A stretch of DNA of 39,301 nucleotides from a virus. A model generated the notes under the pieces. The model was not told the DNA's origin, did no database searches, and saw only the letters and a program-made list of their open reading frames with translations. The DNA is taken from IMG/VR virus record IMGVR_UViG_3300037163_000032, positions 1 to 39,301 of that record; one strand, written 5' to 3'. The first letter of the stretch is position 1; each line of letters begins with the position of its first letter. Below, piece after piece: positions 4,364 to 31,148 of the stretch. Position numbers and translations under genes: made by a program.

Positions 4364-6073
4364 TTAGTCCGGGGCTATGACCCCGACTCCGTTGATGAGC
4401 GTCTGGTTTACAATATCCATCTTTTCGGAGAGGTCCGCCAACTGCTCCTGCTGCTTTTTCCACGGGTCACGCTCATTTGATTTGATGTCGTAAAGGCCTC
4501 TGCGGATGGCGTCGGCTTGAAAATACATGTTGTTGGCTCGTCCGACATTCCCGGATGCTGTTGCAGCCTCCGCGCCGGACTCAAGACGTTGCACTTGGCG
4601 GGCGTCCATGATCTCATTGTAGAAGCCTCGGTTTTTTCTGCGCATTTTGCTATTCACGCGCAAGTCGGCAAGCTGTTCAAGAGTCATGCGGCCCCGGTCA
4701 AACGGCTCGTCCTCCAAATCGGCCATGGAGCGCGAAATCTTCCCGCGCTCTTTTATCAACGACCCGAACTTCTCTTGAGCTTTTGCGAGTTGCTGCGCGG
4801 CGTCAATCTGCACTGTGTCAAGTTGCTTTTGTATCTCTTTTTTGCGAATAATATCAGTCTCAAGAGCAAGCTCGTTTTGAAGGCATCTCACTTTGTCTTC
4901 CGCAACTTTAAGTGAGCTGATCTCAGCGGCAAGCCCGCCGTCCTGGTCGTGGTATAACGCCTTGCGAGCCTTTCCTTCATTGTCAATTGCGGCCAGCTTG
5001 TCGCGCAACATCTTGTCTTTTTCGGAATTGATCTCTTTGTCAATATCTGCGAGTTTTGGCACTGACTCGGCGCGGGCGTTTAAAAACTCAACGCTTTGGC
5101 TTCCTTTGTCAACATACACTGCTCCAAGACTGTCTTTGATGCCATTGCGCCGCTGCTCAAGAGCGTCAAGCTTGTCCTGACCTGTCTTTTCCGAGATGGA
5201 CTGCTTTTCAAGGATGTCATTCAGCCGTTCTTGCGCTGCCTTCTTTGCCTCTTCTTGCGCGTGGTACGCTTGACTTGTGCTAAGGTCCGCCTCAACAACA
5301 GGGTTGTCAAACTTCTTTACCATCCAAGCAAGGATACCAACTAAACTGGCTGGGTTCTTTGAAATCAGCATCCCTAATTTTACTGCCGCTATCTCACTTG
5401 CTTTACCGACTGTGCTTAATACCTTTCCAGCGCGTTCGAGAAGTTCCAGGTCTTCTTTGCTTATCACCTGCCAGCTGTTTTTGTTGGATTCAAGCCCAGC
5501 ACGGCCCTGCATGAGCGCGGGAAGGAGCTTAGAGCCAAGCTTCTCGCCAAAGAAATCTGCGGCAATGGCGGCGCGAATGGAGCCATCGGCGGTGTGTTGG
5601 ACGAGGTCCGCCACGTCGCCTAGCAATGTTTCGGTATCCTTGAGCTTGCCGTTCTGGTCTGTCAACGAAATGCCGTACTTGGCAAAAGGCCCGCCGCCTT
5701 CGAGCTTGGCCTTGCCTGCCTCCGTTGAGAATTTGCCGAGCGCTTTGTCCACTTGATCGCTGTCCAAACCAGCCCTTTTCGCGCCTATACGAAGACCTTG
5801 AATGCCCTCAGTCGAAACGCCAAGAGCCGCGGCTTCATTGCGTGTCTTTTTGGCCATGTCGCCAAGCTCTTTGACTTTTGAAATGACTCTGTCAACGGCG
5901 AAAAGCCCCATGACTGGCGCGAGCATCCCAGCCCCCAGGCTCGCAAATGACGACTTGAGCGTGTCGGCAGCTTTTCTACCAAACTCTGCTATACGTTTCT
6001 CTCCGCCCTTGAGCGCCTGGTTTAACATCGTTGTGTCGCCGCCAACCCGTATTTTTACATTTTCATCGCCCAT
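4364..6073 (-). CDS. Tail tape measure protein (569 aa)
   Basis: The N-terminal third has the tape-measure core pattern (AAALGVSTEGIQGLRIGAKRAGLDSDQVDKALGKF ... FAKYGISLTDQNGKLKD ... AADFFGEKLGSKLLPAL). It is followed by a hydrophobic stretch and long coiled-coil-like K/E/L/A-rich sequence. It sits between the tail tube/chaperone slot and the distal tail genes. Confidence 0.85.
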   Translation of the reverse strand: MGDENVKIRVGGDTTMLNQALKGGEKRIAEFGRKAADTLKSSFASLGAGMLAPVMGLFAVDRVISKVKELGDMAKKTRNEAAALGVSTEGIQGLRIGAKRAGLDSDQVDKALGKFSTEAGKAKLEGGGPFAKYGISLTDQNGKLKDTETLLGDVADLVQHTADGSIRAAIAADFFGEKLGSKLLPALMQGRAGLESNKNSWQVISKEDLELLERAGKVLSTVGKASEIAAVKLGMLISKNPASLVGILAWMVKKFDNPVVEADLSTSQAYHAQEEAKKAAQERLNDILEKQSISEKTGQDKLDALEQRRNGIKDSLGAVYVDKGSQSVEFLNARAESVPKLADIDKEINSEKDKMLRDKLAAIDNEGKARKALYHDQDGGLAAEISSLKVAEDKVRCLQNELALETDIIRKKEIQKQLDTVQIDAAQQLAKAQEKFGSLIKERGKISRSMADLEDEPFDRGRMTLEQLADLRVNSKMRRKNRGFYNEIMDARQVQRLESGAEAATASGNVGRANNMYFQADAIRRGLYDIKSNERDPWKKQQEQLADLSEKMDIVNQTLINGVGVIAPD

Positions 6074-6678: not shown

Positions 6679-7062
6679 TTAAGCCGACGCGATCTTGCGC
6701 GAGAATGTCAGGGTCTGCTTTTTGACGCCGCCCTGTTCCTCGGGAGTTGACACGTCGTCAACAATCCAGACTTCAGTGTCAATCGTAGTCGTTGCGCCGA
6801 CAACCGCAGCTGTCCCGTCGGTAGGAAATTGAACCGTAGCGGTAGCCGACGGTAAATCGGGAATAATCGCCTGTCCGTTCGGGATGTTTTTGTTATCCTT
6901 GGAAACAACTTTCGTGGTCGGATAGTGCGGATTCCAACTTTCAGCGACATAGGACTTTGCCGTGCCGCCTGTGCCAGGGGCTGTTATCGACAAGACCCGC
7001 GTTCCAAAAAGTGTGTCTGTTATTACGCCGTCGTATGTGACAGCGGTGTTTGTGTTTGCCAT
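6679..7062 (-). CDS. Candidate major tail tube protein (127 aa)
   Basis: Small Thr/Gly/Val-rich beta-type protein, two genes upstream of the tape measure gene. It has one of the few SD-like leaders (GAAAGG about 11 nt before the ATG). Confidence 0.45.
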   Translation of the reverse strand: MANTNTAVTYDGVITDTLFGTRVLSITAPGTGGTAKSYVAESWNPHYPTTKVVSKDNKNIPNGQAIIPDLPSATATVQFPTDGTAAVVGATTTIDTEVWIVDDVSTPEEQGGVKKQTLTFSRKIASA

Positions 7063-7095
7063 AAAGCTTTAACCTTTCTAAAAAGGCGGCTTTCA

Positions 7096-7617
7096 TCACG
7101 AGGCGGGCGCGGCGGGCACTGGCGAGTCGGTGGGTGTGAGAGTGGAGAGCAGTCCTGGGTGGATTCCAATGACAAGAGCAAATGAAAGCGAGGTCCAATC
7201 CTGGTTGCGGTCATCTACAATGTGTTGGTCTGACGCCTGCGGCTTTGCCATCACGATTTTGTGATAGAGCAGAAATGAGTTGAGCGGATTATTTTGTTGA
7301 TAGTTGCCACGGGACATCAACGCTCGGAGACGCCCAATTGTGACATCATGCGCCGTCCCGTTCTTTTGCCGGTTGGTCACGATATTGAGAAACAGGTTTG
7401 CGTTGAATTTCTGCTCAGTCAACGCGCCGTCGGCAAGAGGGACGTAAACACCCATTCCGCTGACGCCAGACACGCCTACGGCGACGTATGGTGTCTCGAC
7501 GGTCTGTGTGTCCTCAAATTTGTACGCGGTGATGCCGTTGGCAGCCAGGAACGCGACAGCGGCTTGGCTGATCCACATTTCAATTTCGTAAGCTTGTTCA
7601 AGAGTTGGTGTGCTCAT
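7096..7617 (-). CDS. Candidate neck / tail-terminator-type protein (173 aa)
   Basis: The call rests on position just upstream of the tube gene and on ATGA coupling to the preceding gene. The overall pattern loosely resembles DUF3168-type tail completion proteins. Confidence 0.35.
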   Translation of the reverse strand: MSTPTLEQAYEIEMWISQAAVAFLAANGITAYKFEDTQTVETPYVAVGVSGVSGMGVYVPLADGALTEQKFNANLFLNIVTNRQKNGTAHDVTIGRLRALMSRGNYQQNNPLNSFLLYHKIVMAKPQASDQHIVDDRNQDWTSLSFALVIGIHPGLLSTLTPTDSPVPAAPAS

Positions 7618-8426
7618 CGTAGGAGGAGTTTGTCTTTCTTGCCTTTGACAAATAGTTTAAATTCGTAATTCATTTTCTTGACTCGTGCGCTAACGGCGCG
7701 GCGAATGAGACCAGAATCCTCGCAGTTTCGGACTACAGACGGGGCGTCAGACATTATACAGACCTCGCTGTCGTCTTGACGCAGGTCCATCTCGACAAGA
7801 TGTCCGAACGGGTTTGACGGGACGTGGCGGCGAACCCACGCTGGAATTTTGGAACTGTCGCCTCCAACTAGGGACAGCGCTTTTCCGAAGGAAGCCTTGA
7901 GCCGCCCGACGCGGCGCGTCATTTCGTTGAGTTCCTTTTTGGTGGTTGCAACTGGAACGGCGGGGCGAACGATTTCAGTCCACCCATGCTCCGCGCCTTT
8001 TTTGAATATCCCACCTGAGAGTCCGCGCAATCTGCCTTGCTTATTGCGTTTTGAATTGTGGTATGAAATGAGTTCATCAACGGACTTTCCGGCCCAGTAA
8101 TTTTCTCGATTCACTCCAGTTGCTCCGCCTTGCCCAGTCCAGAGTGGAATGTAGTTTGACCCGCCGGACGCACGCATTTCTTTGTTTGTCAATAACATGT
8201 ATTGCTGCATCGGAAAAAACAGCGGAGTTCCGGTTCTGTTTCCGGCGACTTCACCGCGAATCTTATTGACTCCTTGCGCCTTGTTTCGCGGTGGCGTCCA
8301 ATCAATAATCATCTCCAGCAGCAAACGCATTTCGCGCATGACAAGTTTGGGCATGTGCGCCCCAAGTTCCGTTCCGAACTTTTCAAGGACGTTGTCATAC
8401 TTCAAATCCGAGCTGATTTGAATCAT
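7614..8426 (-). CDS. Hypothetical virion protein (270 aa from ATG 8426)
   Basis: The ORF track gives 7614-8585. The ATG at 8426 forms an ATGA overlap with the upstream stop. The longer form would overlap the upstream gene by 163 nt. Confidence 0.6.
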   Translation of the reverse strand: MIQISSDLKYDNVLEKFGTELGAHMPKLVMREMRLLLEMIIDWTPPRNKAQGVNKIRGEVAGNRTGTPLFFPMQQYMLLTNKEMRASGGSNYIPLWTGQGGATGVNRENYWAGKSVDELISYHNSKRNKQGRLRGLSGGIFKKGAEHGWTEIVRPAVPVATTKKELNEMTRRVGRLKASFGKALSLVGGDSSKIPAWVRRHVPSNPFGHLVEMDLRQDDSEVCIMSDAPSVVRNCEDSGLIRRAVSARVKKMNYEFKLFVKGKKDKLLLR

Positions 8427-8788
8427 GCGTCCTTTCGAAGTTCCATTGTCAGACTCACAGCCGTCTCGTTGACATTGTGTACGGTGAAAGATGAACTGTC
8501 CTCGAATGTAATGACCGTCTCGCGTTCCACCGGACGCCACGGGCCGACGCCAATTGGGGCTGTGGCGCCGCTGGCCAGGATGCAATTCATGTCGAGATTG
8601 CCTTTGAGGACGGTCAACGTAGAAGTTTTCCCGTTGTATTCGCCTGCATCGAGCATCTGGAAACCTCCCGTTGTTTGCGCCTGGCGCAGCCCTACGTATT
8701 GCGTTGTGTCACCCGCTGTGAACAGAGAGGGGTTGTCGAACATGACATCCCGCAGGGCGCTTTCCAGTTGAATTTCGGCTTGTGTCAT
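8423..8788 (-). CDS. Hypothetical head-tail connector-sized protein (121 aa)
   Basis: ORF that is ATGA-coupled on both sides and is the first gene of the neck/tail block. Confidence 0.5.
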   Translation of the reverse strand: MTQAEIQLESALRDVMFDNPSLFTAGDTTQYVGLRQAQTTGGFQMLDAGEYNGKTSTLTVLKGNLDMNCILASGATAPIGVGPWRPVERETVITFEDSSSFTVHNVNETAVSLTMELRKDA

Positions 8789-9123
8789 CGCTTGTCAGAT
8801 TTGCTTATCATGCCTCGAATGTATGCCACGTCCGAAGCGACGGTGTTGATTTTCTCGTGAAGTTCGGAAAGCTTCTTGTCCATAGAATTCTGCACAACCT
8901 CATGTCGTGCCTCGCATTTCTGACTAACCGCATTGATCTCCTTTTTGAAGTCGCTGTAAATAGTGGCAAGTTGCTCATCTATGGATGCGTGCCGCGCAAA
9001 CAGCTTCTTCACGGCATTGATCGTTGAGAATAGGAGGTTTGATCCGGCCAATACGGCTACGGCCCCAATCAACCATTCGCCGGTTGTTGACCACTGGATT
9101 GTTGGGAGTTGTGCGTATATCAT
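8785..9123 (-). CDS. Membrane-anchored coiled-coil protein (112 aa), holin / i-spanin-like in architecture
   Basis: One N-terminal TM segment (WLIGAVAVLAGSNLLFSTINAV) is followed by heptad-like charged sequence (IDEQLATIYSDFKKEINAVSQK...KLSELHEKINTV). Confidence 0.55.
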   Translation of the reverse strand: MIYAQLPTIQWSTTGEWLIGAVAVLAGSNLLFSTINAVKKLFARHASIDEQLATIYSDFKKEINAVSQKCEARHEVVQNSMDKKLSELHEKINTVASDVAYIRGMISKSDKR

Positions 9124-9338
9124 TTCAGTGAGATTATGTTTTTTGGCTTTTGGCCAGGCTCCGGGTAGGGAGGCTCTATGCCCGCTGGCTGTTTCGGCGT
9201 GTTGGTTCCGAATACCAGAGCGCGCCAGATTCCAACGACACCACCCTTGTTTACGATTGCGTAATACGATCGGCCAATGATAGGGACCGCAGCAACGAAC
9301 CAGCCCCAGTGATCTTGAATGAATTGGATGATTTTCAT
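9120..9338 (-). CDS. Small membrane protein (72 aa from ATG 9338), holin-like
   Basis: The ATG at 9338 forms an ATGA overlap with the DUF1353 gene stop. There are two hydrophobic stretches (WGWFVAAVPIIG, GGVVGIWRALVFG) and a Pro/Lys-rich tail. Confidence 0.5.
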   Translation of the reverse strand: MKIIQFIQDHWGWFVAAVPIIGRSYYAIVNKGGVVGIWRALVFGTNTPKQPAGIEPPYPEPGQKPKNIISLK

Positions 9339-9769
9339 TTTGTTGATTGGTTGGTTGGTTTCAGGACTTGGTCGGCGGTGTGGTCGCGATTCCAATAGGA
9401 GCCGCCAAACATGCGCACGTTGTAATAGATGACCTTTCGCGTGAACCAACTCACTCCGCAGACTTCCATTGCTTCGAGAAGCACCGCGTCCGCCTGAGCG
9501 CGAGTGCAGGGCTGGAATGTATAGAGCCAGTCATGCACCAATGCGGCATTGGTGTATTTTCCGAAAGGTGGGTAGATGCTCCAAAGAAATCTCGGGATGC
9601 TGGCCAGGTCGGTCTGAAATCCGGCGAGCACGGTCACTAAGCATGCCAGCACGTCCGAATAGAATCCGAGTTTATCCACAACCGTCCACGTCTTGCCGTC
9701 CGAGTTATTTGACAACACGTTCGTTCCATTGAATACTGGAATACCGCAGATTGTGAATTGCTTTTTCAT
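9335..9769 (-). CDS. DUF1353-family protein (144 aa)
   Basis: Family hallmarks are present: GFQTDLASIPRFLW, then AALVHDWLY, then RAQADAVLLEAM, then YYNVRMFGG. Confidence 0.75.
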   Translation of the reverse strand: MKKQFTICGIPVFNGTNVLSNNSDGKTWTVVDKLGFYSDVLACLVTVLAGFQTDLASIPRFLWSIYPPFGKYTNAALVHDWLYTFQPCTRAQADAVLLEAMEVCGVSWFTRKVIYYNVRMFGGSYWNRDHTADQVLKPTNQSTK

Positions 9770-10524
9770 GTCGCCTTCACCACATCGAGATCGGTCAGCA
9801 ACTTGTTCAAATCGAAACCGTTTGGAGCGTTAAATTCTTTCGCAGACCAGTCATACGATAACGCCGCCCAGGCTTCGTCACCGTATTTCTGCCACCACTC
9901 ATTTGTCAAATACTGAAGGCGCCCCCAGGTGACGCACCAGAAACCATTTGCGTCGTAACCAACAATCGGAACCGCATGCCCTCCCAACACGCCGGCACCG
10001 AACCAAGGATTGGTTTGGTTCCATGTTTTGCGAGCGTTGAACTCATCCATTGCGCGCTGCGTAAGGGTGACGCCAGCGAACACGGCGCCGAACAGATAGA
10101 TTGCCGCGCGCATGTGTTGCAACTCGGCGGTGTCAACTGACACGAATGCGGATATGGGCCTTCCGGCGATTCCGGTTGACTGCCAGTATTTGAGCAAATC
10201 GAGTTCGTTGTAGCCAACGTCGGTTGAAGGACGGGCCGGGTCGTAACCAGCCAACTGGCTGTAAAGTGACAACACCTCATCATCGGTTGGATTGAGGTCT
10301 ATTCCGTGCTCCTTGCGCCATTCCATCAGCATGTGGAACGCAGTCACAAAAACGCAATCCCCGGCTTTGTCATTGCCCAGCATGAGCCAGTCTTTGATTC
10401 CGTTTCCCCACCGTGCGGAGAGAGGAATCGCGGGCATAGCATCGGCCTTGAGATACCGCGCTAACTTTAGAGTGCGCGGGTCGTGGCGCGATGCGAGCCT
10501 GCCGAGTTTTAGAGTTTGACTCAT
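9766..10524 (-). CDS. Papain-like (C1-type) cysteine peptidase (252 aa)
   Basis: There is a nucleophile-like motif (NDKAGDCVFVTAFH). There is also a His/Asn-Trp block typical of papain-fold enzymes (GGHAVPIVGYDANGFWCVTWG). Confidence 0.6.
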   Translation of the reverse strand: MSQTLKLGRLASRHDPRTLKLARYLKADAMPAIPLSARWGNGIKDWLMLGNDKAGDCVFVTAFHMLMEWRKEHGIDLNPTDDEVLSLYSQLAGYDPARPSTDVGYNELDLLKYWQSTGIAGRPISAFVSVDTAELQHMRAAIYLFGAVFAGVTLTQRAMDEFNARKTWNQTNPWFGAGVLGGHAVPIVGYDANGFWCVTWGRLQYLTNEWWQKYGDEAWAALSYDWSAKEFNAPNGFDLNKLLTDLDVVKAT

Positions 10525-10527
10525 AAT

Positions 10528-10710
10528 TTATTCTCCGCAATGCTCGCAGTTTCGCCCGGTGTCCGGGCAGTCAACACATTGACAACCGGGATGGACTTGA
10601 CCATCCGGTCCGGTGATCTCCCTTGCCGAAACGCGCAGGCAAGCCCAGACAACGAATGATGCGGCTAAAACCATCGACGATATACAAACAACGATCAAAG
10701 TCATAGGCAC
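10528..10710 (-). CDS. Small TM protein with a Cys-rich tail (60 aa)
   Basis: N-terminal TM segment (LIVVCISSMVLAASFVVWACL) followed by CQCVDCPDTGRNCEHCGE. Confidence 0.5.
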   Translation of the reverse strand: MPMTLIVVCISSMVLAASFVVWACLRVSAREITGPDGQVHPGCQCVDCPDTGRNCEHCGE

Positions 10711-10711
10711 C

Positions 10712-10963
10712 TCACTTTTGCGACGCGTTCATCACCTTGGTGATCGCCTCTCCGGCGGCGGAGATGGAGTTTGAATCTGAGCCGGACGATCCGCATGTCA
10801 TGGAGGCGCTGTTGGAGCCGTTTTGTATAGTGACAGTCCATGCGGTGGACTGCCAAAACAGTCTGGCGTTCTTGATCTCAGTCCCGTCAGGAGACTTAAA
10901 CGTTGTCGTGTTGCACGCGCACAAAAGCGCGACGGCACAGGCGGAGAGTAGGATTTTTTTCAT
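10712..10963 (-). CDS. Putative lipoprotein (83 aa from ATG 10963)
   Basis: MKKILLSACAVALLCACNTT has a basic N-region, a hydrophobic core and a Cys-containing lipobox-like end. The longer track ORF (to 11017) would read through the terminator hairpin. Confidence 0.55.
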   Translation of the reverse strand: MKKILLSACAVALLCACNTTTFKSPDGTEIKNARLFWQSTAWTVTIQNGSNSASMTCGSSGSDSNSISAAGEAITKVMNASQK

Positions 10964-10964
10964 A

Positions 10965-11010
10965 TCAAATAAAACAGCGGGCACCCGCAATCGCTCACAG
11001 ATGCCCGCTG
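10965..11010 (-). terminator. Intrinsic terminator after the capsid gene pair
   Basis: The minus-strand RNA reads CAGCGGGCA-N18-UGCCCGCUG (9-bp GC-rich stem at 10975-10983 / 11002-11010), followed by UUUUAUUU. It lies 22 nt after the stop at 11032. Confidence 0.6.
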
Positions 11011-11031
11011 AACACACATACGGTTGAAGGT

Positions 11032-11445
11032 TTAGACTCGGACGGTCGGGGTCGCGTTGATGGCTGCGGCGGTGGTTGTGTTCGCGCCCAAGGTCACGTA
11101 GGCACGCCAGTATTGATAATCCAACTCCGGGCGAATCGACAGCGATTGAGCCGCGACGCCAGCGCCGTTGGCTGCTGTGAATATACGGTAGCCACCGTCA
11201 ACAACGCCTGTTGCGAACGTGGAATCGTTGCTGGCCTCGAAACCAAGAGTGACAGTCTTGGTGTCGGGGATGATGGTCGCGGAGAGGGCAGGGAAACTGA
11301 CCTCCAATTCGAGGGCCTCAGGGATCGGTGGGGCCCCGAGATCGATAGCAGAGGACGTGGTTTTGGCGGAGGCGGCGGCAGGCAAGGCGAACGGCACTAC
11401 GGTCGTGGCCCAGTCTTGAAGCTGACGGTGATAATTCCAGGACAT
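11032..11445 (-). CDS. Hypothetical head-associated protein (137 aa), a possible decoration protein
   Basis: It lies immediately downstream of the major capsid gene and upstream of a terminator. It is Ala/Thr-rich and beta-type. Confidence 0.4.
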   Translation of the reverse strand: MSWNYHRQLQDWATTVVPFALPAAASAKTTSSAIDLGAPPIPEALELEVSFPALSATIIPDTKTVTLGFEASNDSTFATGVVDGGYRIFTAANGAGVAAQSLSIRPELDYQYWRAYVTLGANTTTAAAINATPTVRV

Positions 11446-11478
11446 AGTATACGAATTCTTTCTTGGTTCGATTGTTGT

Positions 11479-12549
11479 TTACGAGCGCAAACCGGTTGCG
11501 GCGTCGGTAGTGATCGTCTCCGTGCTGACCAGCGAGTCAGTCACGATAAGCGGGATGCCGTTCGATTCGGACGGGATCGGACCAACAAGCGGCGAGCCTT
11601 GGGGATTCGGAACTGTCACATTCGGGCCAGAGCCGCTCGCTAGAGCAGCGCCGCCGACGGTTTGGTTCTGGATGCTGACCGGAGTTCTGGACACTTGCAA
11701 CAGGTACCGAGCGTCGCGGTTGGCGAATATCTTGAGTCCACCGGAGTTGGTGAACTGCAGCGGGAAGAGGCTGATTGCTTGCGAAATCAAGCGGTCTGTC
11801 AACGGATGTGTCGCGTCGATCCCGATGATGCGGACAACGCATTTCGGATGATTCGCGGCCAGGCCGATGTAACCGTTCATGCCTTGGGTATACGCCGTGG
11901 TGTGATATACAGTCGTGACACCGCCGACTGTTTCGGAAGTCTCGACTTGCCGGAGGTCCCACGCAGGAAGAGCCATGCCAAGCCCGCGATTGTTGCCCCA
12001 TACGAAATGCACGCCTTGGACGTTCTCCCAGATGAGATAAGCCGAGGATGACGCGCCGGATGCGCCGCCAGCGTCAAGAACAAAAGTCGGGTCAACGAAG
12101 TCCCGTAAACCCTGGAAGCCGTTGACGTCGTTGTTGCGGCCATACCAGACTTGAGAGCCGATGGTGATTAGAGCCGCTCGCATGGCCGCCACCAATTCAT
12201 CGGCCAGGATGCTGCCAACGCTTACGGGCGATCCGTCCGCATTCGCTGTGCCCTCAGCCTCAGCGTCAACGATAGGCTTGGGGATGCGCAACTGAGTTTC
12301 GAGGAAAGCGCAAGTGTTGATCTTCTGAGTGTATTGACTGGCAATCAACGGAGTTCCTCGACCCGGAATTGCGAAGCCAACGACGGGCAAAACGCGCTGC
12401 GTTGTCTTATACGACGTGCCGATAATCGGACGCCCGGAGATGTTGTTGAGCTCCGCAGGCAGAGTGGTTGTCAATTCTACAACTCCTACGCTCTGGTCAG
12501 AACCGGTGCGGGCGGTGACACCCGCCAATGTGATCATTTTGTCGGACAT
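11479..12549 (-). CDS. Major capsid protein (356 aa)
   Basis: Its size and its place directly after the scaffold gene fit a lambda-order head module (portal, S49 protease, scaffold, capsid). Confidence 0.75.
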   Translation of the reverse strand: MSDKMITLAGVTARTGSDQSVGVVELTTTLPAELNNISGRPIIGTSYKTTQRVLPVVGFAIPGRGTPLIASQYTQKINTCAFLETQLRIPKPIVDAEAEGTANADGSPVSVGSILADELVAAMRAALITIGSQVWYGRNNDVNGFQGLRDFVDPTFVLDAGGASGASSSAYLIWENVQGVHFVWGNNRGLGMALPAWDLRQVETSETVGGVTTVYHTTAYTQGMNGYIGLAANHPKCVVRIIGIDATHPLTDRLISQAISLFPLQFTNSGGLKIFANRDARYLLQVSRTPVSIQNQTVGGAALASGSGPNVTVPNPQGSPLVGPIPSESNGIPLIVTDSLVSTETITTDAATGLRS

Positions 12550-12555
12550 AGATTT

Positions 12556-13014
12556 TTAGTTGTTTTTGAATTTTGCGCTGAGTTCGGCATCGATGGCTGC
12601 TGCCACGCGGTCAATGCCTTTGAGTCCGGCGGCTTTGTTGGGTTTTCCGGTGGCCAGAGTTGGTTCGGAAATGAGTTCGGCAACGACGGGGGGCACCCCG
12701 GCGGCGGCGGCAATGTCAACAGCTTTCTTGGCTGCTTCAATTTGCACTTTGCCCTTGGGGTCGGCAATTGTCGCCCGGGCTTGCGCGAGTTGGTTTTTGG
12801 CGATTTCAAGCTCCACTTTCGCGCTGGACAATTCGGATTTGACTTGCTCAAGACTGGCTATCGTGTTCTTGACATCTGTCTTGGCCGCGCTGAGTTCGGA
12901 TTGCTGGGCGTCGGCGGTCTTCGTGACGGTCTCAAGATTTGCCTTGGCCGTCGCAAGCTCTGCCTCAAGCTCGCCGATGCGTTTATTGGCTTCGCCAATT
13001 CTGAAAAAGTTCAT
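12556..13014 (-). CDS. Head scaffolding protein (152 aa)
   Basis: Almost entirely coiled-coil A/E/K/L sequence (GELEAELATAKANLETVTKTADAQQSELSAAKTDVK...), located just upstream of the capsid gene. Confidence 0.7.
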   Translation of the reverse strand: MNFFRIGEANKRIGELEAELATAKANLETVTKTADAQQSELSAAKTDVKNTIASLEQVKSELSSAKVELEIAKNQLAQARATIADPKGKVQIEAAKKAVDIAAAAGVPPVVAELISEPTLATGKPNKAAGLKGIDRVAAAIDAELSAKFKNN

Positions 13015-13032
13015 ATTGTTTATTGACTGGTT

Positions 13033-13515
13033 TTACGGAGCGTTTTCGTACCAAATTTGGAACGGCACCGCGTTGGTTTGGGTTGTGGAAACTTGATCAA
13101 GTCGAAGGCCCCAGTAATTCGCAAGCTGGGCGGCTGTTAGGCTATACGAAACAACGGTTGTAACATTGCTGCCGCCCAGGGTGTTGGTCATGGTCAATGG
13201 GAGCGTGGTAGTGGACAGAGACCCGGCGCGAACGGAGGAAACGAAATTGAAAGACGCAATCAGGCTTCCCGTTCCGTTGTTCGTTGGGGTCGCCTTGAGA
13301 TAGACCACCATACCACCTCCTTGGGGTATGGTCAGCACTTGGCTTGCCACGGGCGCTAAGTTGGTCACTGTAGCGGCAGGGCTAACCGTGTTGGTGAATA
13401 GAGTCAACTGGCCTCCGCCAGCGAAAGCTGAATTTGCAGCAAGTAAAGCTGCGGCTGCGATTCCAAAAAAAAGATGTTTCATAAAATGTCTCGTCAAGTG
13501 TTTGAATTTCATCAC
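13033..13515 (-). CDS. Signal-peptide-bearing beta-rich protein of unknown function (160 aa; alternative start at ATG 13482)
   Basis: MKHLFFGIAAAALLAANSAFA-GGGQ is a textbook Sec signal with an AxA site. The mature part is Thr/Ser/Val-rich. Confidence 0.6.
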   Translation of the reverse strand: MMKFKHLTRHFMKHLFFGIAAAALLAANSAFAGGGQLTLFTNTVSPAATVTNLAPVASQVLTIPQGGGMVVYLKATPTNNGTGSLIASFNFVSSVRAGSLSTTTLPLTMTNTLGGSNVTTVVSYSLTAAQLANYWGLRLDQVSTTQTNAVPFQIWYENAP

Positions 13516-14382
13516 CTATTTTGCGGAAGCCCGGAATGACATCGGGATGCTTGACGCCTCTTCGACTGCCTCTTCCATCGTGTCAATCGTTCCATCGGTT
13601 AGGCTAAGCTCCTGTGCGTGGACACCGGTAAACGATTGGCCTTCCAACGCATCGGCAATAGGGGTCCGCTTCGCGGAGCATGCTTTGACAAATTCCGCTT
13701 TGATTTCGTCCACCTCGGCTTGAATCATCGCCCGCTCTTCGTCTGTCATAGATTTGAACGGGGCACCGGTGAGCTTGTATTTGCCAGCGCTGATTGCGTT
13801 GACTTTGACCCCGGCGGTCTTTAGCGCCTCAGTTTGATCGGTGTAGATCGCGTAGCACCCGACGTTGCCGACGTATGCGCTTGGGGCCGCCCATAGGATG
13901 TCACACTGGCTGGCCAGCCTGTAGGCTGCGGAGCAACATTGCTTGTCAACGTATCCAACGGTCGGCTTGGCGCAGTTGGCTATCATGTCGCCGCATTCGA
14001 GCATGCCCACGACTTCACCCCCTGGGGAACGGAAGTCAAAAAACAACACCTCGACATTGCCGTCGGCCTCGGCAAGTTCAATGGCTTCCATGATGTCAAC
14101 GTAATCGCAGCCGCCTAAGCAGGCTTTCTCGAACGAGTCAAGATGTTTGCCAAGAGCGCCATGCACGGGGATGATGGCGACGTTGCCGAATGTCCCTCCG
14201 CTCTCCTGCATTTGATCCGCGTCGTTGTCGGTCTTACCTGGTGCGTTTTCGTCCTCTATGAGGATGGCCCTCGGTTCGCCGTTCATGCGGGCCACGAGCA
14301 CGCGGGCGGCGCGCTCGGCGTATCCGATGTCAATGGCCAGCGGGCGGTTGAATAGCCGTGCGGCAATGTGTTGGTATTTCAT
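13516..14382 (-). CDS. Prohead protease, S49 (SppA/ClpP-fold, lambda gpC-like) family (288 aa)
   Basis: Motifs FDFRSPGGEVVG and CCSAAYRLASQCD...PSAYVGNVG are present. It is ATGA-coupled to the portal gene, as in lambda B-C. Confidence 0.85.
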   Translation of the reverse strand: MKYQHIAARLFNRPLAIDIGYAERAARVLVARMNGEPRAILIEDENAPGKTDNDADQMQESGGTFGNVAIIPVHGALGKHLDSFEKACLGGCDYVDIMEAIELAEADGNVEVLFFDFRSPGGEVVGMLECGDMIANCAKPTVGYVDKQCCSAAYRLASQCDILWAAPSAYVGNVGCYAIYTDQTEALKTAGVKVNAISAGKYKLTGAPFKSMTDEERAMIQAEVDEIKAEFVKACSAKRTPIADALEGQSFTGVHAQELSLTDGTIDTMEEAVEEASSIPMSFRASAK

Positions 14383-16166
14383 TCTGATTCCTTGTCAAAA
14401 TCGTCTTCTTCATCTGGTTCTTTTTCTTGAGTTGTACTTGAGCTTGATCCTTTTTCTCCCATCGTTCCATTTGGATTTTGCAACTCGATATTTGAACTGT
14501 CAGCATGTCCAAATATATTTGTGATGCTGCCCATTGGCTTCTGTAGCATACCCAATGCAATGGTTATCGAAATGTTATATTTTGTTGCTAGCAGAGCCGC
14601 GTCTTGCAACAGCTTGTCCGCACAATCAATTCTACTCTTTCGGACGTGCTCCGGTATGCCGCCGTTGCGTGAAATCACGATCTCGGGAGTTGTGATTCCG
14701 TTTTCTATTTCGCGGATGTCAACATCAGAATCGTACTTTGCGTCGGCGGTAATGCGCCGCTGGCTCTGATAGGTCCACGCTGGCCAGCTCTCGTCAAATG
14801 AAACGTCGCCGCGCTTGATGAACTTGGGGACGCGCCAGCCGTCCACTCGGGTCTGCCAAGGTACCAAAATCAACTCATGCCACTTGGACACCTCTTGATT
14901 GATCCTGGCCACAATAACGCGCATCGCGGCGCCGCTCTTCTTCGCGTCCAAAAAGTAATCAACCGACTGCCCCATTGACGCGATAGCCTCGCGCACGATT
15001 TTGTCATCCAAAGCTTGCTGATTTTCGCTTGGGCGGTCGGCAGTTATGGCTTCAATCTTCTGGTTTGTTCCGGCTTTAGTATACCAAATTTGCGCTCCCG
15101 TGATGATCTGCTTTGCTTGATGAACAAGATTGCCTTCGTCGTCTGCGTTTGGAATCGAGTTTTTGTTAGCCGATGTCGTTCGGATAATTGCCCTAGAAGG
15201 GTCCACAGTGCCAGTCTCATTTACAATATTGAATCCCATCGAAGCGGCGAGCTTCTGTATAACACGTTCCAGGTCGCGCCCCTCATGCACGTCCTGCATG
15301 GGCCACATGAGCGAAGTCAAGATCGGGAAGCCGCGAACTTGCCCGTCAAATTGTGGAATGAATGACGGGAACATATCGCGGGAAGAGATGTCTCGGTAGT
15401 TGCTAAGGTCGGCCTGATTTTCCGAGTAAACCCGGTAAGCGATTGGTCGGCTATACGAATTGACAATCACTCCGTCAATCAAACGCGCAAAGAACTCGAC
15501 GGGCTCAGTGTATGCCGTTCCGTAGCTCTCAGGGTCGGCGCTAATCGCATCTTCAACCAACTTGTCGTCGATAAACATCTGGTTGTTTTCAAGACGCACT
15601 TTGACTGCTATGATACCTGGAACATAGGGTGAGCCGATGCGGTGCGCTGGAATCATTTGAATCTGTGGATAGCCCCCCGATGTCTCCGTAAGTAAAGTGT
15701 ATGTCTCTCCGTCGGTAAGGCAAGCCGAAACGATTGTACGGCGTGCAGTCAAGAAAGTGTATGGCCACCCCTCGACGCGGCCGTACTTGTCATTGGACTT
15801 TAGCAGGGATTCCATTTCATCTCCCCAGGCCGCGTTCGGCCCGGCGTAAAGGCGACGCATGGCAGCGATGTTGCTTGTCAAGTCTTCAATTGCGGCTCTG
15901 AGAATGGGATTATTGATTGCCAGCCAGCGCCCCACCGACATCAGCACCCGGCGTCCGAAGTTGGTGAGGTTGCGATGGAAATCATAGTCCATCATCGGTA
16001 CGTACTGACGCCCGTCTGATTGATTCGCCGCCTGGAAGAGCCGGGAGCCGGTCAGCATCGACGCGGCGGATTGCTGGGAAGGAGAGAGGATGTTGACCGG
16101 CGCTACGCTGGCCATCTTTTGCTGCGACTCCCATTTCGATTCCAGGAATGTCTTCGGGGGTTGCAT
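14379..16166 (-). CDS. Portal protein, lambda-type (595 aa from ATG 16166)
   Basis: About 600 aa ORF between the gpW-like gene and the S49 protease gene, with an acidic C-terminal tail. The ATG at 16166 follows the upstream stop after 1 nt. The track start at 16211 overlaps the upstream gene by 44 nt. Confidence 0.8.
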   Translation of the reverse strand: MQPPKTFLESKWESQQKMASVAPVNILSPSQQSAASMLTGSRLFQAANQSDGRQYVPMMDYDFHRNLTNFGRRVLMSVGRWLAINNPILRAAIEDLTSNIAAMRRLYAGPNAAWGDEMESLLKSNDKYGRVEGWPYTFLTARRTIVSACLTDGETYTLLTETSGGYPQIQMIPAHRIGSPYVPGIIAVKVRLENNQMFIDDKLVEDAISADPESYGTAYTEPVEFFARLIDGVIVNSYSRPIAYRVYSENQADLSNYRDISSRDMFPSFIPQFDGQVRGFPILTSLMWPMQDVHEGRDLERVIQKLAASMGFNIVNETGTVDPSRAIIRTTSANKNSIPNADDEGNLVHQAKQIITGAQIWYTKAGTNQKIEAITADRPSENQQALDDKIVREAIASMGQSVDYFLDAKKSGAAMRVIVARINQEVSKWHELILVPWQTRVDGWRVPKFIKRGDVSFDESWPAWTYQSQRRITADAKYDSDVDIREIENGITTPEIVISRNGGIPEHVRKSRIDCADKLLQDAALLATKYNISITIALGMLQKPMGSITNIFGHADSSNIELQNPNGTMGEKGSSSSTTQEKEPDEEDDFDKESE

Positions 16167-16167
16167 A

Positions 16168-16470
16168 TCAGTATCCCCCCCATCGCGCCCCCTCGGGCAA
16201 ACCAACGACACCTCCGAATCCTACGTTGACAACGGATTGCTCAACCGCCCATTTGTAGGGGTACTTCGTTGGATCGATTACGTATAGCGCGTAATCAACC
16301 CGCTTCAGAGTGAGTTCCGGAGTCGCGGTCGGCTGGTTGCTAGCATGCACGTCTGCCGTGCCTGCCCCTGTCGTGTGCTTGTGCTCGGCGATCTCGAGTT
16401 GCAGCTTGCGGCGCATTGCAAGCAACTCGTTCTCTGTCCAGCCTTGAAAATAATTCGGTAATTGCAGCAT
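16168..16470 (-). CDS. gpW-like head-tail joining / head completion protein (100 aa)
   Basis: Small ORF directly upstream of the portal gene, as in the lambda A-W-B order. Its N-terminal helix (ENELLAMRRKLQLEIAEH) resembles the gpW N-terminus. Confidence 0.45.
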   Translation of the reverse strand: MLQLPNYFQGWTENELLAMRRKLQLEIAEHKHTTGAGTADVHASNQPTATPELTLKRVDYALYVIDPTKYPYKWAVEQSVVNVGFGGVVGLPEGARWGGY

Positions 16471-16986: not shown

Positions 16987-17217
16987 TTATGAGTTTGTTA
17001 TTTCGTAGTTCCCATCCATAAACTCTCGAACAAAACACTGGTCGGATTCCGGGAGCATGTCTATTTGATCTTCCGTTATTTCATCATGTCCCACCGGACC
17101 TCCATTACTTTCCATCTTCCCATTGGGAAAGAAAGTCAGACATTCATCTGATCGAAACTCAGGGTTAATTTTAAGGTTTCCATCACAATCAATAAGCGGC
17201 CATTGAATTTTTCTCAT
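16987..17217 (-). CDS. Small acidic hypothetical protein (76 aa from ATG 17217)
   Basis: MRKIQWPLIDCDGNLKINPEF... The track start at 17235 is a GTG inside the 42-bp repeat. The region is A+T-rich. Confidence 0.55.
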   Translation of the reverse strand: MRKIQWPLIDCDGNLKINPEFRSDECLTFFPNGKMESNGGPVGHDEITEDQIDMLPESDQCFVREFMDGNYEITNS

Positions 17218-17230
17218 ATTTTTTACCGGT

Positions 17231-17272
17231 CTCACAGCCGTTCGCCCTGGGGTTCCGCCGGGATCGCGGGTT
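17231..17272 (-). repeat. 42-bp GC-rich start-proximal element, copy A
   Basis: ctcacagccgttcgccctggggttccgccgggatcgcgggtt is identical to 17845-17886. It ends 13 nt upstream of ATG 17217. Confidence 0.9.
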
Positions 17273-17289
17273 CTTTTTTTGCATTTTAG

Positions 17290-17442
17290 TTATTTTTCCT
17301 GAACGACGACCCGATAAGAGAACGGGTGCTTAGGGTCTGTTAGATATTGAGCCTCTTTTTCAGCTTTGGCCTTGCTGTCGAATGAGTACCTGACTTTTTT
17401 GCCATCATTGTTGCGGACAATAGTCCAAATTGTTTTTTTCAT
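17290..17442 (-). CDS. Small basic hypothetical protein (50 aa), below the ORF-track cutoff
   Basis: Hand translation gives MKKTIWTIVRNNDGKKVRYSFDSKAKAEKEAQYLTDPKHPFSYRVVVQEK*. It fills the gap between two moron ORFs. Confidence 0.45.
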   Translation of the reverse strand: MKKTIWTIVRNNDGKKVRYSFDSKAKAEKEAQYLTDPKHPFSYRVVVQEK

Positions 17443-17483
17443 ATTTTGAGTTTTAATGTTGTCATTTTATTTTCCATATTAAA

Positions 17484-17840
17484 TTAAGCTCCGAATTTTG
17501 AATATTTGTTAATGTCCCCCGACCTTTGCACCTCAGCCGTGAAACAGTGGCTCCAAATTCCACCACCTTTTTCTGTGCCATCACCTTTATCAACATCAAC
17601 CATAACCTCGGATTTCTGCATCAGGGATTCAACTTTAGTGAACTCCGGTTGGGTTAGTGCTATACACCCGACTACTCCAACAAACTGTTTTTCCGGGCCG
17701 AAAGCTGGTTTCCGTTCCACCATTCCGGTGGAACATTTTTTAATCCCATCGACCGAAATAAAAGCCGTTCCAGATCGAATTTCAATTTCAACCAGTTTTC
17801 CGGCGAGAGTCGTTTTTGTAAAAATCATATTTTGTTTCAT
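17484..17840 (-). CDS. Small hypothetical protein (118 aa from ATG 17840; alternative in-frame ATG at 17897)
   Basis: MKQNMIFTKTTLAGKLVEIEIRSG... The track start at 17939 lies upstream of the candidate promoter. ATG 17840 lies 4 nt past the 42-bp element (13 nt in copy A). Confidence 0.55.
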   Translation of the reverse strand: MKQNMIFTKTTLAGKLVEIEIRSGTAFISVDGIKKCSTGMVERKPAFGPEKQFVGVVGCIALTQPEFTKVESLMQKSEVMVDVDKGDGTEKGGGIWSHCFTAEVQRSGDINKYSKFGA

Positions 17841-17844
17841 CGGC

Positions 17845-17886
17845 CTCACAGCCGTTCGCCCTGGGGTTCCGCCGGGATCGCGGGTT
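17845..17886 (-). repeat. 42-bp GC-rich start-proximal element, copy B
   Basis: Identical to 17231-17272. The two copies are 614 bp apart in direct orientation. Confidence 0.9.
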
Positions 17887-17917
17887 GAGAGCTTCATGCT
17901 CCCTGTTTCATGATTAA

Positions 17918-17946
17918 ACAATACGCAACGCTTGCGCATCGCGCAA
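17918..17946 (-). promoter_or_regulatory. Candidate sigma70-type promoter with an overlapping palindromic operator for the moron operon
   Basis: The minus strand reads TTGCGC-N17-TATTGT. The -35 element is half of the perfect palindrome TTGCGC-GAT-GCGCAA (17932-17946), and a third CGCAA half-site lies at 17925-17929. Confidence 0.35.
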
Positions 17947-18066
17947 CAAAAAAGTGAAGATTTTTTACGATTTTCTTTTTACAGAGGGGTTTTACCTATG
18001 AAGAATTGGAGAAAAATTGCGAAAAGACAGAGGTTTAGGCGGTGTTTTAAAACCGAAAACTGAAAT

Positions 18067-26028: not shown

Positions 26029-26649
26029 CTATTTCCTTCTGGCGAGTTGCTTTAGCGCGTTCCCAAAAGCCCGCTCGCCTATTTCTTCCCACTGGGCGGC
26101 TGTGAACGTCGTGTTGGCAAGAACGGTGATCTTGTCGCCTTCAATGACAAAGCGTTCGGCGGCGCGAGACGGGGTAACAACGGTGGGCTTCGTGGCAATT
26201 GCCTTAAGCTGCTCATCCGTGTTGCGCACCTGATTGTCCGGCGTGAAAACGACTGCAATTTCTTGTTTTGACAATTGCGTCACTTTCTTGTCATCAACGT
26301 AGGTTTTGCCGTTGGCGACAGACACGACTTTAATCGTACCTTCGTATAGCGCCTTTTGCTGGCTCGCTGGCAGGAGTGCAATGCGTTTGGCGGCAGGCGA
26401 TGAATCAAACAAAAGGGCTTCGTGCATGACGCCGCGCCCTACGCGCTCAAGATTAGCTAACAGGTTTGCGCTGATTTCCGGGTGTTCCTTTTGAATGTCT
26501 CGGTAAGCGTTCGGATTTGCGTCAACGATCAAGCAAAGCATATCGCACGCTTTTTTGATTGCGTCGCGCCCGGCTTGCAGAGCGGCTGCGAACTGGTTGA
26601 TGGTAGGGGTGTTTTGAGTCTTGTCAACTGACGTATTGTGTGTGTTCAT
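26029..26649 (-). CDS. Hypothetical protein (206 aa)
   Basis: Minus-strand ORF, ATGA-coupled upstream. No motif was recognised. Confidence 0.55.
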   Translation of the reverse strand: MNTHNTSVDKTQNTPTINQFAAALQAGRDAIKKACDMLCLIVDANPNAYRDIQKEHPEISANLLANLERVGRGVMHEALLFDSSPAAKRIALLPASQQKALYEGTIKVVSVANGKTYVDDKKVTQLSKQEIAVVFTPDNQVRNTDEQLKAIATKPTVVTPSRAAERFVIEGDKITVLANTTFTAAQWEEIGERAFGNALKQLARRK

Positions 26650-27392
26650 GATTTTGTGTTTAGGATTGTTGATAGGTTGAGTGCTTGAAGGAAATGGATT
26701 GTCTGCAAATTGGGTATTTTGTTGGATTGCGCGGCGTTGTAGGCGGCATTGTAGGCGCGTTTCTCTTCACGATGCGCGGCGTGGTAGGCGGCATCGTAGG
26801 CGCGGTGCTCTTCCCGATGCGCGGCATCGTAGGCGCGTTTCTCTTCACGATGCGCGGCGTTGTAGGCGGCATCGTAGGCGCGTTCCTCTTCACGATGCGC
26901 GGCGTGGTAGGCGGCATTGTAGGCGCGTTTCTCTTCCCGATGCGCAGCATCGTAGGCGGCATCGTAGGCGCGGTGCTCTTCCCGATGCGCGGCATTGTAG
27001 GCGCGTTTCTCTTCCCGATGCGCGGCATCGTAGGCGGCTTGGCGGGCGCGGTGCTCTTCACGATGCGCGGCGTGGTAGGCGCGTTTCTCTTCCCGATGCG
27101 CGGCGTGGTAGGCGGCATTGTAGGCGCGTTTCTCTTCACGATGCGCGGCGTGGTAGGCGCGTTTCTCTTCCCGATGCGCTGCATCGTAGGCGGCATTGTA
27201 GGCGCGTTTCTCTTCCCGATGCGCTGCATCGTAGGCGGCGTGGTAGGCGCGTTTCTCTTCCCGATGCGCGGCGTGGTAGGCGGCTAGGTAGGCGGCGCGG
27301 CATTGTTTACAGCTTTGTTTATTTGAGAACTTCTCTACTGGCAACAACCTGCCGCACTTTGCGCACTGCTTGAATTGTTGGTTGGGTGTCAT
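26646..27392 (-). CDS. Zn-ribbon protein with a long (AAY)AAHREEKRAY tandem repeat (248 aa)
   Basis: N-terminal CAKCGRLLPVEKFSNKQSCKQCRAAY is followed by about 16 units of 11 or 15 aa (AYxAAHREEKR / AYxAAYxAAHREEKR). Confidence 0.7.
   Translation of the reverse strand: MTPNQQFKQCAKCGRLLPVEKFSNKQSCKQCRAAYLAAYHAAHREEKRAYHAAYDAAHREEKRAYNAAYDAAHREEKRAYHAAHREEKRAYNAAYHAAHREEKRAYHAAHREEHRARQAAYDAAHREEKRAYNAAHREEHRAYDAAYDAAHREEKRAYNAAYHAAHREEERAYDAAYNAAHREEKRAYDAAHREEHRAYDAAYHAAHREEKRAYNAAYNAAQSNKIPNLQTIHFLQALNLSTILNTKS
26730..27296. repeat. In-frame 33/45-bp tandem repeat array
   Basis: Units such as gcgcgtttctcttcacgatgcgcggcgtggtaggcggcattgtag are repeated with small variations across about 570 bp. 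Confidence 0.9.
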
Positions 27393-31105: not shown

Positions 31106-31148
31106 ATGTGTTGTATGTTATTTACTGAATACGAGTTTGGAGAACAGG

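Follow-up and report, generated by a model that had tools for sequence, protein, structure and literature searches.

A six-gene block with a DUF1353 protein and a papain-like peptidase as a candidate lysis cassette in a phage without a recognisable endolysin

Layout of the block

Which genes would lyse the host of a phage that has no recognisable endolysin? This question is raised by the IMG/VR virus record IMGVR_UViG_3300037163_000032, whose 39,301 nucleotides were analysed here in full and are termed the window below. The window is a complete circular phage genome of 39.3 kb; a 42-kb contig of the Joint Genome Institute (JGI) carries the same circular gene order, and the junction of the window falls inside an 831-aa (amino acid) Laminin_G_3 fibre gene. 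Since the genome is complete and circular, and the window is a circular permutation of the JGI contig, lysis genes hidden outside the window were ruled out. All the real genes lie on the minus strand, and so does the terminator described below. Between the capsid genes and the neck genes there is a block of six open reading frames (ORFs), which encode, in the order of transcription, a lipoprotein, a small transmembrane (TM) protein with a Cys-rich tail, a papain-like cysteine peptidase, a DUF1353 protein, a 72-aa protein and a protein with a TM helix and a coiled coil. An earlier note, made from the sequence alone, had proposed this block as a non-canonical lysis cassette, and the six ORFs were found at the positions that it gave.

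The block is preceded by an intrinsic terminator behind the head module (10966-11010), with a 16-bp stem (11010-10975, 9 GC pairs) followed by TTTTATTT. This strong stem bears out the terminator that had been noticed behind the capsid genes at 10965-11010, and no second terminator-like site was found on the minus strand within 7000-13500. No promoter-like site was found ahead of the block on the minus strand. The genes had been described as mostly ATGA-coupled, which holds for four overlaps (peptidase/DUF1353, DUF1353/72-aa, 72-aa/112-aa and 112-aa/121-aa) and not for the first two junctions of the block, which are short gaps with no ATGA. The coupling runs on past the 121-aa gene into the virion genes for the 270-aa and 173-aa proteins; hence, the block is translationally coupled into the neck/tail genes and is not sealed off from the virion genes.

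Canonical lysis genes were searched for by profiles. No lysozyme, amidase or transglycosylase was found by Pfam among all ORFs of at least 90 aa, no canonical lysin by PHROGs among the block, its flanking ORFs and the ORFs with no Pfam match, and no holin or spanin by Pfam or PHROGs in the complete genome. Consequently, the absence of such enzymes, which had been read by eye, is confirmed, and no conventional endolysin, which would have spoken against the earlier proposal, turned up elsewhere. About 12 ORFs of the genome have no annotation. Outside the block, TM-like segments on the coding strand are confined to three ORFs, for a fibre-like protein of 306 aa, a 160-aa protein whose N-terminus looks like a signal peptide, and a peptide of 30 aa, and no small membrane protein adjoining an enzyme-like ORF was found among the unannotated ORFs outside the block. 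Because the block holds most of the small membrane-targeted proteins and the complete genome has no recognisable endolysin, the block is indeed the best lysis candidate in this genome.

The DUF1353 protein and the cysteine peptidase

The 144-aa product of 9335-9769 was correctly assigned to DUF1353 in the earlier note: it matches PF07087 over the full profile (1-91) with 91.5 bits (cut-off 22.5) and E = 2.6e-26. The accompanying remark that no function is assigned to DUF1353 no longer holds. The family's founding member TtaP is encoded in the typhoid-toxin islet beside a phage-type muramidase and is a phospholipase A2 (PLA2) as determined by enzyme assays and high-performance liquid chromatography of lipids, with the catalytic residues H70, D71 and D85; it caused no overt envelope disruption in Salmonella, where its biological role is unknown (PMC11525133). 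These residues correspond to H79, D80 and D94 in the window protein, with the same +15 spacing; 31 DUF1353 homologues all have H79 and D80, and the conservation of D94 among them is at least 90%. The protein is therefore described here as a putative PLA2. The sole match of the family profile in the PDB is the PLA2 8K1W, over the HD motif and weak at E = 0.58.

Two close homologues of the protein (P0123 and P0134) have lipoprotein signal peptides, and DUF1353 is found fused to lysozyme, NlpC/P60, OmpA-like, MliC, several protease and tail-fibre-assembly domains (domain table, PMC11525133), which therefore point to the cell envelope. The genomic context of DUF1353 was sampled in 12 cultured phages, counting endolysin, lysozyme, M15 peptidase, transglycosylase and holin as lysis annotations. 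In seven of them (AH02, gmqsjt-1, phiRTG5, phiPMW, NrS-3, JD-Fnp5 and an Aquificae virus) a lysin or holin lies within five genes of DUF1353, in three DUF1353 is beside tail-fibre genes only, and the remaining two are uninformative. Judged from its family and conserved residues, the DUF1353 protein should be read as the putative lipid-attacking component of the block.

The 252-aa peptidase (9766-10524) has N51, C57 and H183 as predicted oxyanion-hole residue, nucleophile and base, respectively. A search of 5.8 billion proteins returned 328 homologues, all labelled "hypothetical", and N51, C57, G181, G182 and H183 are invariant in 68 of the family, N51 standing six positions before C57 as in papain. 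The family profile matches xylellain (3OIS) with E = 2.3e-5. With the AlphaFold2 model (pLDDT, the predicted local distance difference test, 93.3), Foldseek gave 160 PDB matches at E ≤ 1e-3, led by 3OIS (E = 2e-9, TM-score 0.65), with procathepsins K and B and further C1A enzymes next. Pfam gave no match at E ≤ 0.1, the Peptidase_C1 model included; a single-sequence PDB search gave only chance matches to manganese superoxide dismutase and a weak streptopain match; PHROGs placed the peptidase in phrog_19005, which has an unknown-function label; and NCBIfam returned nothing for any block protein. Since Peptidase_C1 is not matched and only the family profile reaches 3OIS, the peptidase is C1-like and not a C1 member. 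The profile match, the Foldseek result and the invariant N51, C57 and H183 agree with the papain-like assignment made by eye, and the model indicates a genuine papain-fold, C1-like peptidase.

Papain-fold wall hydrolases come from the NlpC/P60, CHAP and Amidase_5 groups (PMC10318531). The nearest relatives of the block peptidase are true C1 proteases, not members of these groups or M15/M23 wall peptidases, and no lysin-family match was obtained in Pfam, PHROGs or NCBIfam. Nearly all homologues are about 250 aa long without signal peptide or TM helix, and no wall-binding domain fusion occurs among 120 of them. Against viral models, Foldseek matched phage "Peptidase_C1" proteins, one of which is annotated as "Peptidoglycan binding-like", and, weakly, proteins annotated as "endolysin". 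A role as prohead protease was rejected, because the head module already has an S49 protease.

The neighbours of the viral peptidases were counted in 73 non-redundant viral loci, using the nearest same-strand neighbours and Pfam counts; it should be noted that greedy ORF calls in high-GC loci gave spurious antisense ORFs and noisy neighbour clusters, which were not relied on. The nearest same-strand neighbours include GH25 (2), Amidase_2 (2), Hydrolase_2, VanY/M15, GH19 and one holin. Canonical lysis neighbours occur in about 10% of the loci, which is above the expectation for one lysin per genome, and the position beside canonical wall hydrolases therefore suggests an accessory role, not a replacement. 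Lipoproteins are enriched near the family (odds ratio 3.3, p = 0.04).

In Acidobacteriota the peptidase family is abundant as a chromosomal gene outside prophages. Its chromosomal members have a hydrophilic N-terminal extension of about 30 aa and no signal peptide. Their conserved neighbours are a GGDEF membrane protein upstream and a metallophosphoesterase downstream, and TonB-dependent receptors also occur; no DUF1353 gene lies within 5 kb of the peptidase in any of 80 bacterial-genome loci. The chromosomal context and the lack of a signal peptide therefore suggest a general cytoplasmic cysteine peptidase that was recruited by phages, not a dedicated endolysin family. In the Acidobacteriota contigs L109-L179, the N-terminal extension is conserved and duplicates the "DPxRxDP/HDPRTL" motif, and the conserved neighbours suggest a housekeeping or signalling role of the cellular family.

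The lipoprotein and the small membrane proteins

TM helices were predicted by Kyte-Doolittle (KD) hydropathy, and topology by the positive-inside rule on the sequence. The first gene of the block (10712-10963) encodes an 83-aa protein whose N-terminus, MKKILLSACAVALLCAC followed by Asn, fits a lipobox (LLCAC, with Asn at +2), which supports its earlier description as a lipoprotein. The mature protein would have 66 aa, is beta-rich with 1 Pro, and has no family match in Pfam, PHROGs or NCBIfam. Homologous lipoproteins adjoin the peptidase in other loci, namely L014/L018, L188, L048 and L063. The lipobox is of the unusual form [LF]-C-[AGS]-C with a second Cys at -2, which is kept in four independent lineages (window, 10915-10926; L018, 4698-4961; L048, 5729-5989; L063, 4030-4995).

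The second protein (58-60 aa, from 10704 or 10710 to 10528) has a single TM segment with a KD peak of 2.48 and the tail CQCVDCPDTGRNCEHC with the pattern CxCxxC...CxxC, in line with the TM peptide and Cys-rich tail noticed before. Because basic residues are present only C-terminal to the helix, the predicted topology is N-out/C-in with a cytoplasmic Cys cluster; the tail is acidic. From these features it is a candidate holin-like protein or membrane tether. Its TM helix is homologous to the N-terminal TM helix fused onto the peptidase P0003 of L188. The ORFs for the 60-aa protein and the peptidase share a frame, with only TAA-ATT before the ATG of the peptidase (10522-10530), and this arrangement, as against the fused P0003 (L188, 2257-3108), may reflect read-through, gene fission or fusion.

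The 72-aa protein (9120-9338) is weakly hydrophobic, with a Pro-rich tail, and is conserved along with the cassette, homologues being found in L014/L018 and L188. It had been described as a two-TM protein, which is not the case by hydropathy: its two hydrophobic stretches are only 12-13 residues each, and no segment reaches even the lax TM threshold. It may be membrane-active.

The last protein (112 aa, 8785-9123) has, as proposed, a TM helix (17-35) and a charged coiled coil, and gives weak matches to coiled-coil families in Pfam. Basic residues (KKLFARH) follow the TM helix and none precede it, so that an N-out/C-in orientation is predicted, which would place the coiled coil in the cytoplasm. 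The other loci with the cassette (L014, L188 and L009) keep the lipoprotein but gave no homologue of the 112-aa protein, which on this comparison appears specific to the lineage of the phage in the window.

Could the lipoprotein and the 112-aa protein form a spanin pair, as the earlier note suggested? The two genes are four genes apart, in reversed order and not co-conserved; the predicted topology of the 112-aa protein is opposite to that of Rz; and the lipoprotein, with 1 Pro among its 66 mature residues, is not rich in Pro. On all these counts the pair thus falls short of a spanin. As for holins, neither the 60-aa protein, with one strong TM segment, nor the 112-aa protein, with one TM segment and a charged coiled coil, has a holin match in Pfam. 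The architecture of the 112-aa protein resembles that of the Mu releasin gp25 and of the holin-like protein of phage WO; it has no match to DUF2730 (PF10805), no BLASTP similarity to Mu gp25 and no similarity to the 103-aa protein of L009.

The block as a mobile insertion

Relatives of the major capsid protein (MCP) were obtained by exhaustive search, a word-indexed search having returned the query only. They define 36 loci of related-head phages, with MCPs 30-36% identical to that of the window, and three fragmentary matches. These phages keep TerL, portal, S49 protease, scaffold, MCP and the 137-aa partner (homologues in 31 ORFs), and none of the 36 loci has the block genes. There, the 137-aa gene continues directly into the neck/tail genes; for example, a homologue of the 270-aa protein lies one gene past the 137-aa gene in L216. 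Therefore, the block is an insertion, and the terminator is its upstream edge. Absent from the syntenic site in the 36 loci and present at other sites in L014, L188 and L009, the block is a mobile cassette. At the nucleotide level, positions 7000-13000 had zero blastn matches in 50,697 phage records.

In L014 (contig 131), a 60-aa two-TM protein is followed by the lipoprotein, the peptidase (74% identity), the DUF1353 protein and the 72-aa homologue, between fibre-like genes and the tape-measure gene. Over 26 of its 29.9 kb, contig 131 has no canonical endolysin, and its sole wall hydrolase is the NlpC/P60 protein of a tail module like that of gene transfer agents. In L188, the order is tail fibre, 64-aa two-TM protein, lipoprotein, peptidase P0003, DUF1353 protein, 76-aa protein and 70-aa homologue of the 72-aa protein; the cassette ends the late operon, abutting convergent early genes, and P0003 is 74% identical to the window peptidase, with an N-terminally fused TM helix of the 60-aa type. 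Both cassettes are thus headed by a holin-like gene for a 60-64-aa two-TM protein with a basic tail. In L009-L011, also at an operon end, a 103-aa TM/coiled-coil/Cys protein with a weak DUF2730 (releasin) match precedes a 79-aa two-TM protein, a 138-aa lipoprotein, the peptidase (47% identity) and the DUF1353 protein. In L048, a TM/Cys/coiled-coil protein, an M15_4 peptidase and a block-type peptidase precede a lipoprotein homologous to that of the window. The positions and companions of the block core in these loci are those of lysis cassettes. From the sequence comparison, the core would consist of the lipoprotein, the C1-like peptidase, the putative DUF1353 PLA2 and the 72-aa hydrophobic peptide, and the 60-aa TM/zinc-ribbon-like and 112-aa TM/coiled-coil proteins would be lineage-specific additions here.

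Comparison with known systems

Lysis genes between head and tail genes are known from P2-like phages. The location of the block inside the virion genes, which had been thought unusual, has comparable cases in these phages and in Wolbachia phage WO (PMC9203015). In fact, the closest published analogue of the block is the proposed patatin-phospholipase lytic cassette of phage WO, in which a PLA2-type enzyme and a small single-TM/coiled-coil holin-like protein lie immediately upstream of the tail module, and canonical endolysin, holin and spanin are all absent; the WO cassette is likewise only proposed (PMC9203015). The two differ in that patatin and DUF1353 are unrelated lipase families, and that an ankyrin protein is present in WO and a peptidase and a lipoprotein here; the host of WO is without detectable peptidoglycan.

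The TtaP/TtsA islet shares with the block a protein of the same Pfam family, with the His-Asp...Asp arrangement at +15 and no signal peptide, beside genes derived from phage lysis, and an outer-membrane perturbing role has been proposed for TtaP (PMC11525133). However, the islet is devoted to toxin secretion and has a muramidase, whereas the block has a C1-like peptidase and no muramidase, and the DUF1353 protein of the window is extended at the N-terminus by a beta-rich stretch of about 55 aa.

Xylellain (3OIS) and the cathepsins of the C1A papain family share with the block peptidase the fold, the Cys-His dyad and an oxyanion-hole residue six positions before the Cys, and the conserved N-terminal segment of the peptidase is reminiscent of a pro-region. 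Unlike them, the block peptidase has Asn where their oxyanion hole has Gln, shows no evident equivalent of the Asn in the papain triad, and belongs to a distinct unnamed family (phrog_19005) of signal-less proteins of about 250 aa.

In mycobacteriophages, LysA is a peptidoglycan hydrolase and LysB a cutinase-like esterase acting on mycolyl-arabinogalactan. The block is similar in having a second, lipid-directed hydrolase in a lysis cassette for an outer lipid layer, although neither enzyme is homologous to the block proteins. The lambda Rz/Rz1 pair is a two-component spanin, in which Rz has a periplasmic coiled coil (N-in/C-out) and the Rz1-type o-spanin is a short Pro-rich lipoprotein. A lipoprotein and a TM-coiled-coil protein are likewise present in one cluster here, but with the separation, reversed order, inverted predicted topology, low Pro content and lack of co-conservation described above. 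The releasin gp25 of phage Mu (DUF2730) has about 100 aa, an N-terminal TM helix in the N-out/C-in orientation and a cytoplasmic helical domain, and lies in the lysis cluster (PMC9239132). The 112-aa protein shares this size and predicted layout, and the L009 protein has a weak DUF2730 match; the differences are that the 112-aa protein has no detectable sequence similarity to gp25 and that there is no signal-anchor-release (SAR) endolysin here.

Interpretation and alternatives

We read the block as a horizontally mobile, non-canonical lysis or envelope-disruption cassette at the head-tail junction of a phage without canonical endolysin, and give this reading a probability of roughly one half. 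Besides the concentration of membrane-targeted proteins, it is supported because the same core recurs elsewhere, headed by a holin-like gene in L188 and L014, and because DUF1353 adjoins annotated endolysins or holins in many cultured phages. What is firmly novel is that a dedicated lipoprotein accompanies a DUF1353 PLA2 and a C1-like protease in a genome with no recognisable muralytic enzyme.

A possible mechanism starts from the observed gene content, folds, families, conserved catalytic residues, mobility, positions elsewhere and absence of canonical genes, and we infer its timing, topology, substrates and the identity of the holin. Late in infection, the small membrane proteins would compromise the inner membrane, and both signal-less enzymes would then gain access to the envelope. 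The PLA2 would hydrolyse phospholipids of the inner membrane and of the inner leaflet of the outer membrane, in place of spanins, and the peptidase would cut an envelope peptide or protein, for which peptidoglycan stem peptides and proteins tethering the outer membrane to the wall are candidates. The peptidase follows the holin-like gene in L188 and L014 and is the sole enzyme candidate for a lysin here, and elsewhere it lies beside Amidase_2, GH25, GH19, M15 and Hydrolase_2; as a wall-cutting enzyme it is unproven, and the context of its family weakens that role.

Several results weigh against a lytic role of the block. No peptidoglycan hydrolase was identified, hence the model has no demonstrated wall-degrading step. 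The peptidase family is not lysis-specific: many viral loci put it among replication and nucleotide-metabolism genes, 80 loci are in bacterial genomes, mostly metagenome-assembled genomes of Acidobacteriota and Gemmatimonadales, with non-phage neighbours, and small TM neighbours are weakly enriched in the viral loci (odds ratio 1.5, p = 0.07). The pairing of peptidase and DUF1353 occurs in four variants only (window, L014, L188 and L009). The holin-like gene that heads the cassette in relatives has no counterpart in the window, where tblastn and phmmer found no homologues of the relatives' holin-like, 76-aa, 79-aa and 103-aa proteins. ATGA overlaps tie the block to the virion genes, and it lacks its own promoter-like site. 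For the DUF1353 model (pLDDT 85), Foldseek returned nothing from the PDB below E = 1 and recovered no PLA2 fold such as that of the group XIV secreted PLA2s 1LWB and 4AUP; on sequence grounds the family membership is solid, whereas the analysis did not reproduce a fold link to known PLA2s.

Among the alternatives, the one that survives best, though we consider it rather unlikely, is that the block is an accessory moron cassette with a non-lytic role in envelope remodelling or protection, for example superinfection exclusion by the lipoprotein, membrane remodelling or vesiculation by the PLA2 and proteolysis of host factors, the true endolysin being an unrecognised ORF elsewhere. The insertion lies behind a terminator, as is classic for morons, the peptidase family occurs widely outside lysis contexts, both on chromosomes and beside phage replication genes, TtaP gave no overt envelope disruption in Salmonella, and an endolysin could be among the 12 or so unannotated ORFs. 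However, no integrase or lysogeny module was detected in the genome by Pfam, so conversion functions are less expected; a textbook holin-like gene heads the cassette in the relatives; in cultured phages DUF1353 shows a strong association with lysis genes; and outside the block no unannotated small membrane protein adjoins an enzyme-like ORF. If the block were such a moron, the complete genome would still hide an unrecognised endolysin family.

It is improbable that the PLA2 and the peptidase are virion-associated entry enzymes, packaged or tail-attached, which would breach the outer membrane and wall-linked proteins at infection, with the small membrane proteins and the lipoprotein as assembly or immunity factors. 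The block does lie inside the structural operon, coupled to the neck/tail genes, and DUF1353 often directly follows tail-fibre genes, is fused to Caudo_TAP and DUF4376 tail-fibre-assembly domains, and is labelled as "tail assembly chaperone" in phrog_1158 and many phage records and as "structural protein" in phage Arash. These annotations are, however, propagated labels and not experimental results; the virions of tailed phages do not contain lipoproteins or integral membrane proteins, lipoproteins occur among the close DUF1353 homologues, and the cassette moves as a unit, independent of the tail type.

Slightly less probable still is the exact model of the earlier note, with the peptidase as sole endolysin, the TM proteins as holin and antiholin, and the lipoprotein and 112-aa protein as a two-component spanin: the genome has no second detectable lysin, the peptidase of L188 and L014 stands in the slot behind the holin-like gene, and related phage C1-like proteins include the "Peptidoglycan binding-like" label and the weak "endolysin"-labelled matches, but the fold and profile are closest to true proteases, the peptidase has no export signal or wall-binding domain, its family is chromosomal in Acidobacteriota and co-occurs with canonical endolysins in other phages, and the spanin pair fails in gene order, predicted topology, Pro content and co-conservation.

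Returning to the lysis cassette, a bolder version would be that this phage and its cassette-bearing relatives lyse a diderm host without a classical muralytic endolysin, by means of the DUF1353 PLA2 and the C1-type protease freed by small membrane proteins, where the protease would be a new endolysin class or a cutter of envelope tethers, and DUF1353 a general class of outer-membrane-disrupting lysis proteins. We regard this as speculative and, all in all, unlikely, if less so than the virion model; if true, it would also explain the role of TtaP in typhoid-toxin release. A holin, a peptidoglycan hydrolase and either a spanin or a disruptin are taken to be required for the lysis of Gram-negative hosts; a PLA2 and a papain-type protease would add new effector classes to this set. 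The reading also offers a testable function for several thousand DUF1353 proteins of phages and prophages, and a phage-derived rationale, namely lipid-directed perturbation of the outer membrane, for the position of TtaP beside the muramidase TtsA in typhoid-toxin export. Should the wall or wall-anchoring proteins prove to be the target of the peptidase, the enzyme would provide a new enzybiotic scaffold.

Other features of the genome

In the order of transcription, the head module consists of TerL (18067-19923), portal (14379-16211), the S49 prohead protease (13516-14382), a protein of 149 or 160 aa (13033-13515), a coiled-coil scaffold-like protein between the latter and the MCP, the MCP (11479-12549), which has a weak GP7 match, and the 137-aa conserved MCP partner (11032-11445), the last gene ahead of the terminator. 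The 149/160-aa protein has a signal-peptide-like N-terminus (...AANSAFA before GGGQ) and no homologue in the related head modules. Downstream of the block follow the genes for proteins of 121, 270, 173, 127 and 199 aa, the tape-measure protein (4364-6073), and then the tail and fibre genes.

The TerL-portal region includes a low-GC island (17000-18000; 0.43 compared with about 0.53 typical of the genome) with three small orphan ORFs (151, 82 and 50 aa). In the early region, a 248-aa protein (26646-27392, minus strand) combines a CxxC...CxxC zinc ribbon at the N-terminus with a subsequent series of about 13 tandem copies of "AAHREEKRAY-x-AAY", and the DNA tandem array within its gene (26728-27284) has periods of 45, 78 and 123 nt. 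A 296-aa protein (30215-31105, minus strand) consists almost entirely of 32 copies of the 6-aa unit GIEAGS/GIKAGS, with an 18-nt period at 30366-30944; the long antisense ORF at 30228-31343 is probably spurious.

The tail-fibre module (31924-39301 and 1-1443) is unusually rich, with three paralogues of the Laminin_G_3 type (one of 306 aa, one of 831 aa and the C-terminal copy at 38145-39125). It also encodes a collagen-repeat protein of 685 aa, which has a tandem duplication of 180 nt (34069-34499), and a 763-aa beta-helix/GH141-like protein that may be a depolymerase. The 306-aa fibre-like protein (31924-32844, minus strand) begins with a very hydrophobic helix (KD 3.08) and has a Cys cluster, a layout as in the 60-aa protein of the block and unusual for a tail-fibre module.

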